Source: Desulfatiglandales bacterium
Lineage (GTDB): Bacteria > Desulfobacterota > DSM-4660 > Desulfatiglandales > Desulfatiglandaceae
DNA: 64,000 nucleotides
Direction of reading: 5' to 3'
Assembly: GCA_963666345.1 (NCBI GenBank)
Contig: OY762721.1
Span: forward strand, 320,001 to 384,000
A model generated the notes under the pieces. The model saw only the letters and a program-made list of their open reading frames with translations. It was not told where the DNA came from and did no database searches. The translations under genes were made by a program, and so were the position numbers. Every line of letters begins with the position of its first letter. The stretch's first letter is position 1. Below, in pieces: positions 2,681 through 60,920 of the stretch.

Positions 2681-3220
2681 CTATTGAATCATAAGCGGTT
2701 TGAACAACTGAATAAACAGAAGCATTATCGTCGCTGCGGCAAAGACATGCAGCGCCGCCTTCAGGCCTCCTATCCCCCCCTGCCTTGCCATACCGACACC
2801 AACCAGACAAAACTTCCAGACCCCGGTTATCATGGCAATCCCTGGAATCCAGGAAAAAAGCAACGTCACGCTGGCATAGGCGGTTATCGAAAAAATTCCG
2901 CTGAATGTATAAACCCCTCGATGGCTCAGCAGGGACAAAAGATAGAGGATAGAGGCCAGAATAAAAGGGGTGACAAAGGCATTTAAAAAGAAAACAAGAC
3001 CAAAGATCAACCTGCTTTCCGCCACAAAGAGACTCGCGGCCATGGCGTAGACAAGGCTCATTGAAAAGAGGAATACAAGGGAAGATCCGTATCCCCCTGT
3101 TGAATCCGGGCTTTCAAAGAAATCTCCCGGTGCCATCAGCAGCCTGGGTATGAACCGGACAAACCGAACGTATCCGTAAGTGCGCTTATCTCCATGATCC
3201 GCATACATAGCCGTTTCCAT
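2681..3220 (-). CDS. Yip1-like membrane protein
   Basis: LLMAPGDFF start motif and about five hydrophobic helices. Confidence 0.65.
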   Translation of the reverse strand: METAMYADHGDKRTYGYVRFVRFIPRLLMAPGDFFESPDSTGGYGSSLVFLFSMSLVYAMAASLFVAESRLIFGLVFFLNAFVTPFILASILYLLSLLSHRGVYTFSGIFSITAYASVTLLFSWIPGIAMITGVWKFCLVGVGMARQGGIGGLKAALHVFAAATIMLLFIQLFKPLMIQ

Positions 3221-3282
3221 TTCTTAAGGGCCTCCCTGTGTTATTTGCCTTCACACCATTTAATACGACCTGTCTAATCCGC

Positions 3283-5139
3283 CTAATATGCCGGAAGGCC
3301 GCTCCATCCCAGCCATCTCCAGTATGTTGAGGCAATCAGGGTCAATACCGCCATGTTGGTCAACCACAATATAACACCCACCCTCAGATAGTCTTTTGAT
3401 TCCAGATAACCGCTGGCATAGACAATGGCATTCGGTGGCGTTCCGATGACAAGGCAGTAGGCAAATGAAGACGCAATCGCAGTACCCATTGCCATGAACG
3501 GGATCATTGACGTGCCTGGGTGAACGATACCTGCCATTGCCAGAGTTACCGGACCTACTGCGGCGCAGGCAGGCCCGTCGGCCATGAGTTGGGTCAAAAG
3601 GCCCGTGATCACATTGCCTGTAAGCAAAAGCCCCAGGCCCTCTCCCAGGCCCAGGGGTACGGTCAATTCCACCAGAGAGCGTGCAATCCAGTAAGCCCCT
3701 CCGGTCTTTACAAGCACACGGCCGAAAATAATCGCGCCTGCATAGAGCCACACGACTCCCCAATCGACCTTTGTCTGGTAATCCCGCCAGTTGACAACAC
3801 CCGCAAGCACATAGGCAATGGCACCCATAACGGCGATTACGCCTATACCGAAGCGTATACCTGTCAGTTTCAGGATAAGATTCTTTTCGGTAACCCAGCA
3901 AAAGAGCATTACCACAAAGATGGCTACCGCAATCTTCTGCTCTCTGGTCCACTTGCCGCCTACCCGGTTGACCTCCTCCTTGACCACTGCCAGGGCATCG
4001 CCAAGGCTTCTGATACGCGGCTTGAAACGCCAGTTGATAACGAACCAGGTGATCGGGACTACGAACAGCAGGAGGGGCATACAATAGAGGCACCACTCCC
4101 CGAATCCCATTGAGATACCGAACATATCCTCGGCATAACTCATCATTATTATATTTCTGGCCGCCCCTGACGGTGACAGGGAGCCTCCTAGGTTACAGGC
4201 CATGGCAATGGTAATCATGAGCATCTTTGCCAGTTCCGGGTCATCACGGCCGTAAGCGGCAGTCGATGTCGTGTAAAGTAATATACCTATGGGCAGGAAC
4301 ATCGCGGCCAGCGCATGATCCGACATGAACATGGTCAGGGGGGATATGACAATTATTATGATAAGTGTGATGCGCTTGATATCGGGGTTCTTCATTTTTC
4401 CGAACATCATCATACTGATGCGTTTGTCCACACCTGTCTTGACAAAGGCGGTTGCAAACATGAGGCTGCCCATGATAAACCATGTGGCATCCGACCAGTA
4501 TAGCCCCGCAATGGTCTTTCTTGTAACTATCCCGCTCAGCATGGCTATGATACCGATACAGAAGGCAACCATCGGAAGGGGCATGGCCTCGGATACGAAA
4601 CATAACACCACGAATAATACTATGCCCACCGCCACCTTTACATGGAAGCCTGCCTTATAGGCCTTTTCCTTTTCTTTCTCCTTGAGGCCGTCGATGCCAA
4701 GATCGGTTGTCCTCAATTCATAGCCTTTTTTCATGAGCCCTTGAAATCTCTCCGGCCCTATCTCCTTTGCAAAGCTGTAAACCTTTTCAAGGTGCGCCCT
4801 TGTACAGGGTATTTCGTTGGTTTTGCACCATTTCGGATTTCTTTTTAAAAATGAGTTATATTCAAAGGCGGATTTCTGGACGCTTATCTCCATCATCCTG
4901 ACCATCTGGATCTGCCACTGAGAAATATCATCGGTTGATTTTTCAAAGAGTTCTTCGGCAAAGAACTCCTGAACATACTTGGGGCCCATTACATATTCCA
5001 CTCCCACATCCAGCATGCTCTTGGGGGTCGGAATCATGAGTAGAATAATCAACAATCCCAAAGGTATTGAGAAGAGCCTCCAGTTTATATACTTGTCATA
5101 ACCTGTAGCCTTCTCCTTTTTATTGACTCCTGTCATCAT
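3283..5139 (-). CDS. DASS/SLC13 family anion (sulfate/dicarboxylate) transporter
   Basis: SEAMPLP, FIMGSLMFATA, MFMSDHA, NLGGSLSPSGAARN, VDWGVVWLYAG, IGTPPNAIVY. Confidence 0.9.
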   Translation of the reverse strand: MMTGVNKKEKATGYDKYINWRLFSIPLGLLIILLMIPTPKSMLDVGVEYVMGPKYVQEFFAEELFEKSTDDISQWQIQMVRMMEISVQKSAFEYNSFLKRNPKWCKTNEIPCTRAHLEKVYSFAKEIGPERFQGLMKKGYELRTTDLGIDGLKEKEKEKAYKAGFHVKVAVGIVLFVVLCFVSEAMPLPMVAFCIGIIAMLSGIVTRKTIAGLYWSDATWFIMGSLMFATAFVKTGVDKRISMMMFGKMKNPDIKRITLIIIIVISPLTMFMSDHALAAMFLPIGILLYTTSTAAYGRDDPELAKMLMITIAMACNLGGSLSPSGAARNIIMMSYAEDMFGISMGFGEWCLYCMPLLLFVVPITWFVINWRFKPRIRSLGDALAVVKEEVNRVGGKWTREQKIAVAIFVVMLFCWVTEKNLILKLTGIRFGIGVIAVMGAIAYVLAGVVNWRDYQTKVDWGVVWLYAGAIIFGRVLVKTGGAYWIARSLVELTVPLGLGEGLGLLLTGNVITGLLTQLMADGPACAAVGPVTLAMAGIVHPGTSMIPFMAMGTAIASSFAYCLVIGTPPNAIVYASGYLESKDYLRVGVILWLTNMAVLTLIASTYWRWLGWSGLPAY

Positions 5140-35199: not shown

Positions 35200-35260
35200 A
35201 TATCCCTTTTTCACCAAGACCATGGGCAAGACCTATTTCCTCGCAGGCCTAAATCCAACA

Positions 35261-35443
35261 TTCAGGCAGGTCTTCTGACTTCCCCCCCTCAGAGGCTGCC
35301 TTCCCGTCTCGCAACAAGACAGTGACTCTCAATTGCCTTCGAGGTTCCCCTTTAAACATCTAAAAGAGAGAGGTAACAGAGGCGGGCCCGTCCCCGATTC
35401 TCACGGGGTTCCCTATTAAGCTCAGATCGAGCGCCTGATGTTT
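35261..35443 (-). ncRNA. Cobalamin (AdoCbl) riboswitch
   Basis: Minus strand: TTAATAGGGAACCCCGTGAGAATCGGGG..GCCCGCCTCTGT..GTCACTG..GGGAAGGC..AAGTCAGAAGACCTGCC (B12 box). Confidence 0.92.
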
Positions 35444-35498
35444 ATCCTAAAATTTTATGACTAATAAAAACCCAAGTCAAGGATATGTTATGGCAGAG

Positions 35499-41692: not shown

Positions 41693-42754
41693 ATGGCGTG
41701 GGACTGGGATAAACTGCAGCAGCAAAGGAAAGGCCCCAAAGGCCCATCAGGGGGAGAATCGGGTGGTCCCCCCCGGATGGATGATGTCTTTGAAAAAATA
41801 AAGGGATCAAAGCTCAAGATACCGGGTGGTGCGCCCATCATAGTCATAATCCTGCTACTGTTTTTTATCGGTTCAAGCTGTTTTTATACTGTAGCGGTGG
41901 ATGAAGTGGGTGTGGTTCAACGATTCGGCAAATACGCAAGGACATCGCAGCCAGGCCTAAATTTCAAATTCCCTAGGGGCGTTGAAAGGGTAAGCAAGGT
42001 AAAGGTCAGGTATGTATTCAAAGAAGAGTTCGGTTTCAGGACCCTGCAGGCGGGCGTAACTTCCAGATATGCCGCCGGCACAACCTACCAGAGCGAAGCC
42101 CTGATGCTTACAGGAGATCTGAACGTGGCGGTAGTGCCCTGGATAGTACAGTACAGGATAAACGACCCGTACAAATACCTTTTTAAGGTAAAAAACGTTC
42201 GCTCGACCCTGAGAGATCTGGCCGAATCCAGCATGCGTCTTGTTGTGGGTGACCGGAGCATAAATGAAGTCATAAGCAAAAGAGAAGAGATAGCCGACGC
42301 TGCAAAGGAATTCCTTCAAAAGGAGCTTGATGAAGCGGAAACAGGCATAAGAATAAGCACTATCGAGATGAAAAAGACAAACGTGCCTGAACCTGTACAG
42401 CCCTCCTTCAATGAAGTCAACCAGGCCACACAGGAAAAGGAAAAGGTGATATACCAGGCAAAAGAGCAGTACAATAAGATAATACCGGCTGCAAAAGGTG
42501 ATGCGGAAAAGACCATCCGATCCGCAGAGGGTTATGCCCTTGACCGTGTGAACCGGGCCAAGGGAGATGCTGCCAGGTTTGTCGCCCTTTACGAGGAATA
42601 CGTCAAGGCAAAGGATGTGACAAGAAGGCGTCTCTATCTTGAGGCCTTGATGGAAATATTTCCCAAGCTCGGAAGCAAATATATTGTTGATGCCGATCAG
42701 AAGAACTTTCTCCCCCTTTTAAACATGGGGGATAAGGCTGGAGGCCAAAAATGA
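41693..42754 (+). CDS. hflK: FtsH protease modulator HflK
   Basis: MAWDW start, GVVQRFGK, MLTGDLN, VTRRRLYLE. Confidence 0.95.
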   Translation: MAWDWDKLQQQRKGPKGPSGGESGGPPRMDDVFEKIKGSKLKIPGGAPIIVIILLLFFIGSSCFYTVAVDEVGVVQRFGKYARTSQPGLNFKFPRGVERVSKVKVRYVFKEEFGFRTLQAGVTSRYAAGTTYQSEALMLTGDLNVAVVPWIVQYRINDPYKYLFKVKNVRSTLRDLAESSMRLVVGDRSINEVISKREEIADAAKEFLQKELDEAETGIRISTIEMKKTNVPEPVQPSFNEVNQATQEKEKVIYQAKEQYNKIIPAAKGDAEKTIRSAEGYALDRVNRAKGDAARFVALYEEYVKAKDVTRRRLYLEALMEIFPKLGSKYIVDADQKNFLPLLNMGDKAGGQK

Positions 42755-43710
42755 AACTTAAGGTGCTAATTATTCCCATAGCAATCGTACTCATTGCCGT
42801 CTTTTCAGCCGCCTATATCGTGGATGAAACGGAACAGGTAGTCATAACCCAATTTGGAAAGGCCATAGGAGATGCCAAGACCGAACCGGGCCTTTATTTT
42901 AAGGTCCCTATGATCCAGCAGGCAAACTACTTTCCCAAAAATCTGCTCGAATGGGACGGTGACCCGGGTCAGGTTCCCACTCTGGACAAGACGTTCATAT
43001 ATGTGGACACCTTTGCCCGCTGGAAGGTAGTCGATCCCCTGGCCTTTTTTCAGACTGTTAACAACGTCGTCGGAGCCCTTGCCAGGCTGGATGACATAAT
43101 AGATCCGGCGGTCAGGAATTTTATCACTTCCTACCCACTTATCGAGACCGTTCGCATGTCCAACCGAAAACTTGACACATATGAAATAGGCATGGACAAC
43201 AAGCAGCAGGATGTAAGAGTCATCCGTGACATAACAGCCGGACGAAGAGAAATAATAAAGGGGATACTCAAACAGGCCCGGCCCAAATTGAAGGATTTCG
43301 GTATCGAACTGGTTGATGTCAAAATTAAACGTCTTAATTATGTGGAACAGGTAAGAAAGTCGGTTTATGCCAGGATGATCGCAGAGAGGAAACAGATCGC
43401 GGAAAAATTCCGGTCCGAGGGTCAGGGGGAGGCACGAAAGATAGAGGGTAACCTGGAAAGGGAGCTCAAGAAGATCACCTCCGAGGCATACAGGATCGCG
43501 CAGGAAACAAAGGGAAAGGCGGATGGACAGGCCACGCTTATTTATTCCAAGGCCTACAGCAAGGATCCTGAGTTCTATTCCTTTTTGAAGACCCTTGACA
43601 CCTACAAGGAAACAATGGGTGGAGACAGCTCCCTCATACTCTCGACAAACTCGGAATTCCTTAGATATCTGAAAGGGTACAAGGGAGAAACCTCAGATTG
43701 GCTTGACTAG
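42751..43710 (+). CDS. hflC: FtsH protease modulator HflC
   Basis: EPGLYFKVP, RMIAER, DPEFYSFLKTL. Confidence 0.95.
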   Translation: MKLKVLIIPIAIVLIAVFSAAYIVDETEQVVITQFGKAIGDAKTEPGLYFKVPMIQQANYFPKNLLEWDGDPGQVPTLDKTFIYVDTFARWKVVDPLAFFQTVNNVVGALARLDDIIDPAVRNFITSYPLIETVRMSNRKLDTYEIGMDNKQQDVRVIRDITAGRREIIKGILKQARPKLKDFGIELVDVKIKRLNYVEQVRKSVYARMIAERKQIAEKFRSEGQGEARKIEGNLERELKKITSEAYRIAQETKGKADGQATLIYSKAYSKDPEFYSFLKTLDTYKETMGGDSSLILSTNSEFLRYLKGYKGETSDWLD

Positions 43711-43749: not shown

Positions 43750-44232
43750 ATGGTCAGGACCGAGATATCGCTTTTCTTAAAAAATGCACCGGGCGAACTG
43801 GGCAAACTGTCCTCTCTCCTCGCAAGCGAAGGCATAAATATCGACGCCCTGACCATTCAGGATGTCTCAGAATATGTAAAGGGTCTTTTCAAGGCCAGGG
43901 GAAAATCGCTCAAAAGGGTCGCATCCGCCGCAAGTTACGGCTCAATGCAGAAGGACTCGGCAGATTATGCGCTTATTCGCCTTCTTGTGGAAAATACCGA
44001 CAAGGCGATAAACCTGCTTTACAGGGAAGAATATTTATTCGATATAATGCCTGTCATAGCCCTTGAGATAGACAACAAACCGGGGACCCTTGCAAAAATG
44101 GCGCGGAAATTCGGAGAAGAGGATATAAATATAAATTATGTATACGGCTCGGCCCTCGCAGGCAGTAAAAAATCACTATTCGTATTCTGCCCTGAAGATA
44201 TAGAACTTGCAGCAGACATATTCAAGGACTAG
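43750..44232 (+). CDS. Tandem ACT domain protein
   Basis: SLFLKNAPGEL..GINI and DNKPGTL..ININYVY. Confidence 0.85.
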   Translation: MVRTEISLFLKNAPGELGKLSSLLASEGINIDALTIQDVSEYVKGLFKARGKSLKRVASAASYGSMQKDSADYALIRLLVENTDKAINLLYREEYLFDIMPVIALEIDNKPGTLAKMARKFGEEDININYVYGSALAGSKKSLFVFCPEDIELAADIFKD

Positions 44233-45959: not shown

Positions 45960-46536
45960 TTGATAAATACCGGTTTTATTTCTTATGAGTAACCGCGATT
46001 TCCTTTATATTTTGTATTTCAGATCAGATCAGATCAGGATTCCGCTTTCATTTCACAGCCGACTACCCCTGATCCCTGATTTTCCAGGCTTCACTAGGCT
46101 CGAACCTTTCAGAACCGGGCTCTCCTATTTTTTGATCCCGCAAAAAATTGTTCATTCTTCAGGCCGAAAAGGTATATTACCCTTAATAGAATTGGGATGG
46201 AAACAGAAAAATCGCATAAACCATCAGGTGGGCTTTGTGCCAAGCGAAAAGGATCTGAATCACATGCGGCAATGCCTTTTGCCCGGCCTTTTTGAAACGA
46301 TTCAAGCCGATAGTCGGCAATTTGCAGGAGGTAGAGTCGACCCAGTATTAACTTGTTGAAACCAGACATAATTACCACCAACCTCGCGCCTGCACTCAGA
46401 ATTTTTCAAATTTTACCAATTGACTTTTACAGAAAAAGAGGCTAATAGAATCGAAACGCAATCACAAAAAGCCATTTCTTTAAAATTCCAAATAAATTCT
46501 TCATGTTAGAGATAATGAATTAAAGGAGGAGTGCCT

Positions 46537-47829
46537 ATGGACGATAAAGCTCTTGAAATCAGCGAGCTTAAAGGTGAATTCAGAAAAAAAGTCAATGAAA
46601 TCTTGCCTGAAGGAAATCTGAACCTCTGCCTCACTTGTGGTGCATGTGCCAGCGGTTGCCCGGCTACCGGACTTGAGAACATGGATCCAAGAAAATTTGT
46701 CAGGATGATAGTTCTCGGACTCGATGATGAGGTTACTACCACACCATGGGTGTGGATGTGCAGCCAGTGCCAGCGTTGCGTCTATGCCTGTCCTATGAAG
46801 GTCGATATTCCCCGGATGGTTTATCTTGCCCGGCAGGCATGGCCGCGTGAAAAACGACCCAAAGGGATACTCGGTTCATGCGATATGGCCCTCAGGAACG
46901 ACAGTTGCAGTGCAATGGGAGCTGCCCCTGAGGACTTTGTGTTTGTTATAGAAGATGTTGCAGAGGAAGTAAGAGACACCCAACCGGGCTTTGAGACACT
47001 CCAAGCACCGATAGATAAAGAGGGGGCCTATTTTTTCCTCAATCAGAATTCCAGGGAACCGGTGACTGAACCGGATGAATTGGTCCCGCTTTGGAAGATC
47101 CTCCACATTGCTGAGGCGGACTGGACCTATGGCAGCAAGGGGTGGGCAGGAGAAAATTATTGCATGTTTCTTGCCGATGATGATTCATGGGAACATGTTG
47201 TCCGTACGAGCATCAACCAGGCCGAACATCTTGGGTGCAAGGTTTATCTCAATACCGAATGAGGCCACGTAACTTTCTCAGTCCTGGAAGGACTGAAAAA
47301 ATTTGGAATCAAGACCGATCTGGAAATTGCCAGCATTTACCAATATTATGCAAAATGGATTAGAGAGGGGAAGCTGAAGGTCAATTCAGACTGGAACAAG
47401 GATCTGAAAATCAAGTTTACGGTTCAGGATCCATGTCAGATAGTCCGAAAAAGCTTTGGCGACCCGGTAGCGGATGATTTACGGTATGTCGTTAAATCCG
47501 TTGTCGGTGAAGAAAATTTTATTGACATGACCCCTAACAAATCAAACAACTATTGTTGCGGAGGAGGCGGCGGATATCTCCAATCCGGTTTCGTTGAAGC
47601 ACGTCACCAGTATGGAAAGGTAAAATTTGACCAGATAGTGGCTACAGGCGCAGATTATTGTATTGCTGCCTGCCATAACTGTCATGCCCAGATTCATGAT
47701 CTTGCCGATCATTTTAAAGGCAAATACCATACCGTCCACCTGTGGACTCTTATTTGCCTGGCCATGGGAATTCTGGGTGAAAACGAGCGTGAATATCTGG
47801 GACCCGACCTTAAAGAGGTTGGACTCTAA
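46537..47829 (+). CDS. 430-aa Fe-S/CCG-domain oxidoreductase (HdrD/GlpC/HmcF-like) with probable selenocysteine at codon 242 (TGA 47260-47262)
   Basis: Two 4Fe-4S motifs (CLTCGACASGCP, CSQCQRCVYACP); frame stays open after TGA through DPC..CCGGGGG..CHNC; NTE-U-GH matches ECGH; AAGGAGGA RBS. Confidence 0.88.
47263..47305 (+). promoter_or_regulatory. Bacterial SECIS-like hairpin
   Basis: TCAGTCCT-GGA-AGGACTGA (47278-47296); G-led loop 23 nt after the TGA. Confidence 0.75.
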
Positions 47830-47857
47830 TACCGACTAAAAAAGTTCCTCTAAAATG

Positions 47858-47887
47858 AAATCCCGCCTTTATGTGGCGGGATTTTTG
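47858..47887 (+). terminator. Intrinsic terminator
   Basis: AAATCCCGCC-TTTATGT-GGCGGGATTTTT. Confidence 0.8.
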
Positions 47888-48034
47888 TTAAATCCCCAGG
47901 CAATGGGGCCTATGTGACATTGCTTGGGCTACTCGTTTTCCCCTGAGGCAGCACCGCCCCACCCCGACCTGACTTTCAAAACAAAACCAGGTCTTATATA
48001 ATAAACTGTGGCAGCAGGGAGGCTATCAGATCCA

Positions 48035-48526
48035 ATGAGTGTCTATGATATAAAATCCAGAACATACTGGCAGAAGATATTGGATGATATCTGTGAAAAA
48101 TCAGGAATGCCGGCAGCCCTTGTCGACGAAAAGAATGTCGTGCTCCAAGCCAGCGGTGAGCGGAATCCTCTCTGCTCCAAAATCCGCAGCAATAATGAAT
48201 CGCTGTCATTTATTTGCAGCCAGACACAGCAGTATATGACACACCAAGCCAAAACCACCGGGGAACCCATCATTGATGCCTGTGAAGCGGGCATGTTGAA
48301 AGTTTTGATCCCTCTTTTTCTGGATGCTGTTTTTGTGGGATCGATCACTGCCTGCGGATCATCCATACCAGGGGAAGAGGTCGAAACCTTCGCCATTGCA
48401 AAAAGCACAAAAATGGATGAAAACAAAATCATACCACTTGCAAAGATGATCCCTGAAGCCGATCAAAACCTGGTAAAAGACATAGCGCAGCTGCTGTTTC
48501 AGAAAATTAAAGGGATGAGTAGTTAG
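48035..48526 (+). CDS. Stand-alone PocR sensory domain protein
   Basis: WQKILD, NPLCSKIR, FICSQ, CEAGM..IPL, ITACG. Confidence 0.75.
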   Translation: MSVYDIKSRTYWQKILDDICEKSGMPAALVDEKNVVLQASGERNPLCSKIRSNNESLSFICSQTQQYMTHQAKTTGEPIIDACEAGMLKVLIPLFLDAVFVGSITACGSSIPGEEVETFAIAKSTKMDENKIIPLAKMIPEADQNLVKDIAQLLFQKIKGMSS

Positions 48527-60663: not shown

Positions 60664-60751
60664 TGGTGCCGGAGGGGGGAATCGAACCCCCACTTCCGCA
60701 AGGGAAACTGGATTTTGAGTCCAGCGCGTCTACCAGTTTCACCACTCCGGC
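60664..60751 (-). tRNA. tRNA-Leu(CAA)
   Basis: GCCGGAG acceptor, CTGGA-CTCAAAA-TCCAG anticodon arm, long variable arm, GGTTCGATT, CCA end. Confidence 0.97.
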
Positions 60752-60844: not shown

Positions 60845-60920
60845 GGGGCTGTAGCTCAGCTGGGAGAGCGCATGACTGGCAGTCATGAGGTCGTCGGTTC
60901 GATCCCGATCAGCTCCACCA
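60845..60920 (+). tRNA. tRNA-Ala(GGC)
   Basis: GGGGCTG acceptor with G3-U70, CATGA-CTGGCAG-TCATG anticodon arm, CCA end. Confidence 0.97.

Follow-up and report, generated by a model that had tools for sequence, protein, structure and literature searches.

The locus described here raises the question of whether a TGA codon lying within a long reading frame ends a gene or encodes a selenocysteine (Sec). It is found in a 64,000-nucleotide (nt) stretch of the genome of a Desulfatiglandales bacterium (GenBank assembly GCA_963666345.1, contig OY762721.1, forward-strand positions 320,001 to 384,000), hereafter called the window, along which all positions are counted. The list of open reading frames (ORFs) splits the locus in two, namely into 46531-47262 (243 amino acids (aa), GTG start) and 47527-47829 (100 aa). 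An earlier reading made from the letters alone (the sequence-only reading) had noticed that the two fragments share one frame without a stop between them and that the TGA in N-T-E-TGA-G-H is the only interruption, and had proposed a hidden selenoprotein. Both fragments are indeed listed in a common frame, the 88 codons between them (47263-47526) are open throughout, and translation with TGA read as Sec (U) gives a single uninterrupted frame of 430 codons at 46537-47829 on the plus strand, whose sole in-frame TGA lies at 47260-47262. Residue U242, in the context KVYLNTE-U-GHVTF, is the only difference from the translation by table 11, and the 430 residues are followed by a terminal TAA. On comparative evidence, the locus is almost certainly a genuine selenoprotein gene of the "Fe-S oxidoreductase (GlpC)-like" family with predicted selenium incorporation; the genome's Sec machinery, the Sec/Cys column in homologues, the comparison of a downstream hairpin and an independent sequencing run all agree with the proposal.

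Decoding of the in-frame TGA codon

The following features were assigned to the gene:

46524-46529, plus strand: ribosome-binding site AGGAGG, 7 nt before the ATG at 46537 (sequence inspection)
46537-47829, plus strand: complete selenoprotein coding sequence, 430 residues, Sec at 242, TAA at 47827-47829 (translation with TGA as U; full-length homologues of 57-77% identity, orthologs of 64-93% identity over the whole length)
47260-47262, plus strand: selenocysteine codon TGA, residue 242, motif NTE-U-GH (Sec/Cys column, ortholog loci, DsrK alignment, independent DNA run)
47278-47296, plus strand: hairpin resembling a selenocysteine insertion sequence (SECIS), 8-bp stem with GGA apical loop (sequence and comparison of 29 orthologs)
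47857-47885, plus strand: intrinsic-terminator-like hairpin AAATCCCGCC...GGCGGGATTT, followed by a T-run (TTTTGTT) (folding of the sequence after the stop)

A ribosome-binding site and a terminator of the gene's own had also been claimed. The former was found as AGGAGG; the latter was recovered by folding, as the hairpin is G+C-rich and the 71 nt 3' of the stop fold at -18.9 kcal/mol, though 47857-47885 was missing from the output of a consensus terminator scanner. For annotation, the locus should be entered as one 430-residue selenoprotein and not as a truncated ferredoxin plus a fragment.

If UGA-242 encodes Sec, related proteins are expected to pair this residue with Cys, and the pairing predicted for residue 242 was found. 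A protein database search returned 2748 homologues, of which the top 120 are full length (419-532 aa, 57-77% identity). Where a source name is given, it reads "(Fe-S)-binding protein" or "Fe-S oxidoreductase", and many of these proteins come from Desulfobacterales. The DNA of 40 relatives contained orthologs of 64-85% identity, mostly with exactly one TGA, and a second group of ~38% identity, also with one TGA. When 20 of these genomic loci and 40 of the best 120 database proteins were aligned (60 rows), the U242 column held TGA in 19 rows, Cys in 41 and no other residue; TGA was present in 19 of the 20 genomic loci and Cys in all 40 database proteins. A wider sample of 201 genomes of the order (E<=1e-120) revealed the ortholog in 53 genomes. 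Of its 65 ortholog match rows, 50 have one TGA and 15 have none, one of the 15 being a fragment that stops short of the column. The TGA lies within NTE-U-GH in all 29 TGA ortholog loci that were extracted, and every intact full-length homologue examined, the best database match included, has Cys at this column. Since the TGA form is the commoner one in the order (50/65), protein databases built from standard gene calls under-represent the family: the closest full-length database protein is 77% identical, as against up to 93% for TGA orthologs in genome DNA. This lends indirect support to the expectation of the sequence-only reading that pipelines would take the gene for a pseudogene.

A sequencing error had been named as one outcome that would overturn the proposal. 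The run of another study (X3) covers the whole 1551-nt stretch without a single difference, and the TGA is bridged unchanged by contigs of two RNA libraries (X8 record 24, 46650-47367; X7 record 18, 47119-47303), with no alternative letter listed at 47260-47262. These contigs attest presence in an RNA library and are no proof of transcription.

The genetic machinery for Sec, the presence of which had likewise been set as a check, is complete. In the host genome, a single contig of 4.16 Mb, all four components score above their curated cut-offs: the Sec tRNA (selC) with 74.6 bits (cut-off 47), selB with 393.8 (242), selA with 608.9 (268) and selD with 372 (125). The selD gene, which lies outside the window (G000:C1:620342-621268; L018), has one in-frame TGA and is thus itself also a selenoprotein gene. 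In the window, TGA terminates 11 of 30 long frames and is an ordinary stop, so the genetic code is not reassigned. UGA-242 would accordingly be read as Sec by the genome's own SelA, SelB, SelC and SelD, with decoding directed by a bacterial-type SECIS hairpin that starts 16 nt after the UGA, within the coding sequence.

This hairpin, described in the sequence-only reading as an 8-bp stem with a GGA loop 23 nt downstream of the TGA, was read at exactly this spacing. It consists of the 5' arm TCAGTCCT (47278-47285), the loop GGA (47286-47288) and the 3' arm AGGACTGA (47289-47296). The bSECISearch program looks for a stem-loop shortly 3' of the UGA with a G in a small apical loop, and the 8-bp/GGA hairpin has both. 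We compared it among 29 Sec orthologs (alignment A4), with controls in which the 3' arm was slid by 1-3 columns. The eight stem pairs are formed in 90.5% of cells, compared with 12-45% in the slid registers. The closing pair 26-30 is GC in 17 orthologs, UA in 11 and GU in 1, while the outermost pair 19-37 is GC in 8, UA in 8 and unpaired in 13; compensatory changes on both sides were seen at two stem pairs. The first G of the loop is invariant and the second nearly so. Local folding of nt +13 to +44 gave -8.2 to -17.0 kcal/mol for the Sec forms (29/29, median -10.8) and a median of -3.2 for the Cys forms (9 of 13 loci scored), a difference whose Mann-Whitney p of 4e-4 is overstated because the sequences share kinship. 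Cys forms with the same AFRSGL peptide as some Sec forms use other synonymous codons, and the stem is lost. No SECIS-type family was found by Rfam in the whole window at gathering thresholds, and a permissive search of 47230-47340 returned only chance matches to microRNA and small nucleolar RNA families, 4 of 5 on the minus strand; bacterial SECIS elements of this kind appear to be without an Rfam model.

Protein architecture and the place of Sec242

Three regions were distinguished in the 430-residue protein:

46618-46803, plus strand: HdrC-like ferredoxin domain, residues 28-89, with two CxxCxxCxxxCP motifs (C31/34/37/41 and C75/78/81/85; Pfam Fer4_8, E 8.4e-10; HdrC chains, E 3.6e-14)
47026-47322, plus strand: degenerate first CCG-type domain, residues ~164-262, with two of the five canonical Cys positions retained, C209 and U242 (structural alignment to HdrB and Cys conservation; the assignment position by position is inferred)
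47419-47694, plus strand: intact second CCG domain, residues 295-386, with C300, C340-C341, C379 and C382 (Pfam CCG PF02754, E 4.5e-11; HdrB chains match)

On the full protein, Pfam recognized the two-cluster ferredoxin domain Fer4_8 and only one CCG domain (295-386), and residues 100-270 searched alone matched no family even at E<=10. All 8 ferredoxin Cys are invariant (60/60 aligned rows), and the five Cys of the second CCG domain are kept in 59 of 60 rows, the exception being a truncated contig. From these motifs, the second domain is predicted to hold a noncubane [4Fe-4S] site and the N-terminal part two cubane [4Fe-4S] clusters.

A search of solved structures by sequence aligned HdrC chains with residues 3-117 (E 3.6e-14) and HdrB chains with the C-terminal part. 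An AlphaFold2 model built from a 20-sequence alignment (predicted local distance difference test score (pLDDT) 78, predicted template modelling score (pTM) 0.82) has EtfD of Mycobacterium smegmatis as its best structural match (Foldseek E 1.6e-9; Z 23.1 over 362 residues), and entire HdrB chains (1-288) align with model residues 164-426 (Z 19-20, root-mean-square deviation ~3 Å). As HdrC and HdrB chains match by sequence, and whole HdrB chains by fold too, the protein is an HdrC-HdrB fusion. No membrane segment (highest 19-residue hydropathy 1.16) and no haem domain were detected. The protein is a soluble HdrC+HdrB fusion with an architecture like that of HdrD, DsrK, HmcF and TmcB. HdrD and HdrB are marked by two complete CX(n)CCX(n)CXXC motifs, of which only the C-terminal one is complete here.

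The placement of Sec in a degenerate first CCG domain, next to an intact second one, was borne out by the single Pfam CCG match, by the HdrB alignment to 164-426 and by the pairing of U242 with a Cys at a ligand position of the first-domain cluster of EtfD and with the GECGH Cys of DsrK. In the ortholog group, C209 stands in an N-Y-C that mirrors the N-Y-C-C of the second domain. By register with that domain, the remaining positions of the first motif (C1, C3 and C5) would be occupied by R173, M210 and V245. C115 and C124 are also conserved in the ortholog group, and both precede the HdrB-like module that starts at 164. In the ~38% subfamily, C115 is replaced by V and C209 by G (11/11 rows), and Sec is kept. 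A further Cys, C234 (47236-47238), lies eight residues before Sec. It is retained by all rows but one in the ortholog group (48 of 49) and by every row of the ~38% subfamily (11 of 11), and is aligned with a Val in the genome's DsrK.

The sequence-only reading had noted that proteins of the HdrD/DsrK/HmcF/TmcB type carry Cys in ECGH, and the alignments are consistent with this. The genome's true DsrK, encoded at a separate locus (732 bits), pairs its LGGE-C-GH with LNTE-U-GH in BLASTP, and U242-G-H244 falls on C581-P-H583 of EtfD when both Sec subfamilies are combined in a profile. According to PMC13083937, C581 ligates the linear [3Fe-4S] cluster of the first EtfD domain, while H583 completes the noncubane [4Fe-4S] cluster of the second. 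PMC10861901 describes a single CCG motif in DsrK, HmcF and TmcB, together with a T/GECGH motif whose Cys is strictly conserved; this Cys belongs to the missing cluster and is proposed there to be probably essential for disulfide or trisulfide reduction. By alignment, Sec242 corresponds to the T/GECGH residue of DsrK, HmcF and TmcB, and the invariant H244 to the ligand of the noncubane cluster in EtfD.

A mechanism can be proposed from this position. Electrons from a cytoplasmic donor would cross the two cubane clusters to the noncubane cluster, and a disulfide, persulfide or trisulfide substrate would sit between this cluster and Sec242. Attack of Sec242 on one sulfur would yield a selenenylsulfide, with the other sulfur taken care of by the cluster, and two one-electron steps would free the thiols. 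We slightly favour this mechanism, in which Sec acts as the nucleophile. In 2024 the question was posed how a single noncubane cluster can accomplish what otherwise takes two. In the literature searched, no link between the Sec of the UGH motif and the catalytic T/GECGH Cys of DsrK, HmcF and TmcB was found; many subscription papers lay outside this search, and Figs S3 and S4 of PMC10861901 may include Sec forms. Sec at the T/GECGH position gives independent evolutionary support for this residue as the redox-active partner of the single noncubane [4Fe-4S] cluster in DsrK-type enzymes, which catalyse the final step in sulfate respiration. A convenient test system would be the soluble Sec form, a single subunit that has natural Cys isoforms, at times within one genome.

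The recurrence of Sec in two subfamilies of ~38% identity, with three to four or more Sec/Cys switches, could be taken further as a natural experiment, in which the residue would be the catalytic nucleophile of all single-cluster DsrK/HmcF/TmcB-type reductases. So general a statement seems unlikely to hold. In its boldest form, by analogy with DsrC as the substrate of DsrK, a protein with four Cys and a PocR domain encoded downstream may be the substrate of the soluble enzyme.

Weighing of the competing explanations

Taken as a whole, an intact soluble 430-residue selenoprotein that fuses HdrC and HdrB and has its Sec decoded via a SECIS is in our view a highly probable reading, of which the mechanism proposed above is the less secure part. 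Several observations weigh against it. With regard to the hairpin, 4 of the 13 Cys loci escaped the motif pattern and hence lie outside the energy figures, one Cys-form ortholog reaches a local hairpin of -13.9 kcal/mol, and conservation within a coding sequence partly reflects the protein. When the 81 nt around the hairpin were folded alone, the result was unremarkable compared with shuffles (z -1.27; 22 of 200 shuffles as stable or more), so that the case for the hairpin is comparative and not thermodynamic. The RNA-library contigs may stem from library DNA, and with 24 differences in 718 nt they come from strains that differ slightly. The comparison of the first with the second domain by hhalign was not significant (probability 2.4%) and suggested a different register; the domain boundaries were therefore taken from the structural alignment to whole HdrB chains. 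The NCBIfam models, among which HmcF, TmcB and DsrK rank first, score far under their cut-offs, with 180 bits for HmcF (NF045711; cut-off 750), 157.9 for TmcB (NF045724; 735), 113.6 for DsrK (NF045796; 400) and 32 and 41.3 for GlpC proper (TIGR03379 and NF008369; 279.9 and 278), so the protein is none of these four and no substrate can be transferred from them; "GlpC" is merely a label of the Sec family derived from COG. Alignment and a published proposal are the basis on which a catalytic role is inferred for Sec, and among the 31 ortholog loci surveyed for neighbours there is no universal operon partner and none that points to a donor or substrate.

Two of the rival explanations dispense with selenium. 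A TGA that truly ends translation would imply a pseudogene, an error of assembly or a pair of genes, one for a ferredoxin-like protein of 241 aa and one for a CCG fragment of 100 aa. The splitting of the locus by table-11 ORF calling and the absence of an Rfam family match for the hairpin would suit this explanation, but it would have to account for a TGA at one column in 50 of 65 ortholog matches and in 11 of 11 extracted loci of the ~38% subfamily, for 88 codons past the TGA that are open and conserved, and for Cys at this column in every intact homologue examined; the identical independent run and the presence of the sel machinery speak against it as well, and we consider it extremely improbable. 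Alternatively, UGA-242 could be read as Trp or Cys by near-cognate decoding or a reassigned code. Low-level near-cognate read-through of UGA occurs in bacteria, and nothing specific points to Trp or Cys here. Termination of 11 of the 30 long window frames by TGA, a complete sel system in which selD has a TGA of its own, and a hairpin kept at the level of synonymous codons in the TGA forms only leave this explanation with hardly any credibility.

The other two accept Sec and assign it a different role. Sec242 may permanently ligate a metal or Fe-S site left over in the first CCG domain, either together with C209 or bound to the noncubane cluster, in what would be a pure electron-transfer module. 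Sec is a metal ligand in [NiFeSe] hydrogenases and formate dehydrogenases, the aligned Cys581 of EtfD ligates the linear [3Fe-4S] cluster, and in the ortholog group C209, at the NYC position, is kept together with C115, C124 and C234; it is also suggested in PMC10861901 that the noncubane cluster may have the conserved Cys as a ligand in the enzyme as isolated. However, Sec persists in the ~38% subfamily, which lacks C115 and C209 (V and G in 11/11 rows), R173, M210 and V245 would stand in place of three ligands of the first motif, and C115 and C124 lie outside the HdrB-like module, and we consider a Sec that acts only as a ligand doubtful. A role in electron transfer linked to acyl-CoA and the electron-transfer flavoprotein (ETF), as in EtfD, FadF or DgcB and without disulfide reduction, would fit the best structural match (EtfD, Foldseek E 1.6e-9; Z 23.1 over 362 residues) and the acyl-CoA dehydrogenase gene found divergently adjacent in 9 of 31 ortholog loci, in locus L029 and in 2 of 11 loci of the ~38% subfamily. 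The window gene, however, has recJ beside it and not an acyl-CoA dehydrogenase gene, its product has no membrane or haem domain (hydropathy maximum 1.16) and lacks the ligands of the first EtfD cluster, and the retention of a costly Sec would favour chemistry over a plain relay; we regard an ETF-linked function as quite improbable.

Genomic context, evolution and known relatives

The selenoprotein gene stands alone in the window. Upstream, recJ lies 570 nt away on the opposite strand; downstream, past the terminator and a promoter-like site, a gene for a stand-alone PocR-domain protein of 172 aa is followed by kdsB, which agrees with the earlier statement that no membrane partner is encoded alongside. 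The PocR gene is probably a separate transcription unit:

48008-48526, plus strand: stand-alone PocR-domain protein, probable start ATG 48035 from the ortholog alignment (Pfam PocR, E 6.3e-19)

Its C56, C70, C92 and C116 are invariant (8/8 rows). The neighbours of 31 ortholog loci were surveyed over flanks of ~1.5 kb, which contig ends shorten at some loci. In 9 loci a PocR-domain gene lies downstream on the same strand, and in 9 the divergent acyl-CoA dehydrogenase gene lies upstream of the selenoprotein gene; a second CCG protein and a class III cytochrome c precede it in 5-6. Neighbours are likewise variable in the ~38% subfamily.

Some further arrangements were observed in relatives. In G003, the ortholog and a ~38% Sec paralog lie ~3 kb apart on the same strand (G003:C3:745350-746483 and G003:C3:749349-750641; L027), and a flavoprotein-like (Pyr_redox_2) gene is found directly 3' of the ortholog. 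In G033 (L024), a gene for an unusual fusion of Pyr_redox, 4Fe-4S ferredoxin and response-regulator receiver domains lies downstream of the ortholog (2837-4252, plus strand), and one for an FrhB/FdhB-like Fe-S protein lies upstream. Elsewhere in the window, the following were recorded:

35248-35453, minus strand: Cobalamin riboswitch aptamer (81.9 bits; gathering score 31.5)
41693-43710, plus strand: two tandem SPFH/Band-7 genes, with an ACT-domain protein next (43750-44232)
60664-60751, minus strand: tRNA-Leu(CAA), divergent from the following
60845-60920, plus strand: tRNA-Ala(GGC)

The history of the Sec position was followed in a quick maximum-likelihood tree of 93 rows, comprising 29 Sec orthologs, 13 Cys loci, 40 of the best 120 database proteins and, as outgroup, 11 members of the ~38% subfamily. 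The tree calls for no fewer than 4 Sec/Cys changes inside the ortholog group, and well-supported branches make 3 of these unavoidable. A Cys-only clade of 41 rows has a support of 99, and some Cys forms are nested in Sec clades. Sec and Cys copies occur together in six genomes (G003, G042, G086, G109, G128 and G162), while the window's own genome yielded 1 match at E<=1e-120 and, with the selenoprotein as query, no second copy or Cys isoform. The outgroup consists of Sec forms throughout, which is compatible with a Sec ancestor and leaves the direction of change undecided by the tree.

The ~38% Sec subfamily comprises loci L030-L040 (in G027, G036, G013, G025, G030, G022, G005, G039, G006, G009 and G020) and has the motif LLLPE-U-GHAYYATRLGLQ. 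It carries a SECIS-like hairpin in another register, GCGACCA GGCU UGGUCUGC, with a bulged U. No member was found in the window's own genome with the selenoprotein query.

That Sec-containing Fe-S oxidoreductases of the GlpC type had been reported, as the sequence-only reading stated, is documented by several sources. A 2006 table of bacterial selenoprotein families (Zhang et al., PMC1794560) has "Fe-S oxidoreductase (GlpC)" among its 25 entries, and such selenoproteins are listed again for marine deltaproteobacterial symbionts and sediment genomes (PMC1976440, PMC8318568). A table in a 2026 review gives an Fe-S oxidoreductase-like family with the motif UGH, 1 Sec and the entry PTHR43551 (PMC13188914), and a soluble HdrD4 of Desulfobacterium autotrophicum HRM2 was listed as a selenoprotein in 2009 (PMC2702500). 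The selenoprotein family has been known since 2005-2006, and beyond the point that Sec occupies the T/GECGH position the locus presents no new kind of biology.

The window gene shares with the GlpC-like selenoproteins of these sources one Sec in UGH, the Fe-S/CCG architecture, Cys homologues and a place in selenoprotein-rich genomes of the sulfate-reducer type. By the features tested, it belongs to the published UGH family, as judged from sequence; the form described in print may be that of the ortholog group or that of the ~38% subfamily. Unlike the first described GlpC-like members, which typically but not strictly lie in a glpC-hdrA-frhD-frhG-frhA operon, it is monocistronic and has recJ and PocR neighbours. 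HdrD4 of D. autotrophicum resembles it by description (PMC2702500), being a soluble selenoprotein with HdrC- and HdrB-homologous domains and no transmembrane part. With DsrK, HmcF and TmcB it has in common two cubane-cluster motifs, one intact CCG motif and the retained T/GECGH residue, from which it differs in having Sec for Cys and no adjacent membrane partner of the DsrM, HmcE or TmcC type. The fold is that of methanogen HdrB and HdrC (PDB 5ODC and others), with HdrC matched over 3-117 and HdrB over 164-426; however, HdrB and HdrD are reported to have two complete CCG motifs and two noncubane clusters, whereas the first motif of the window protein is cut to C209 and U242. M. smegmatis EtfD (PDB 9OJN), finally, is the best structural match, with C-P-H aligned to U-G-H; EtfD is described as membrane-bound, with haem b and a linear [3Fe-4S] cluster on four Cys (PMC13083937), while the window protein is soluble and without three of the four ligand positions.

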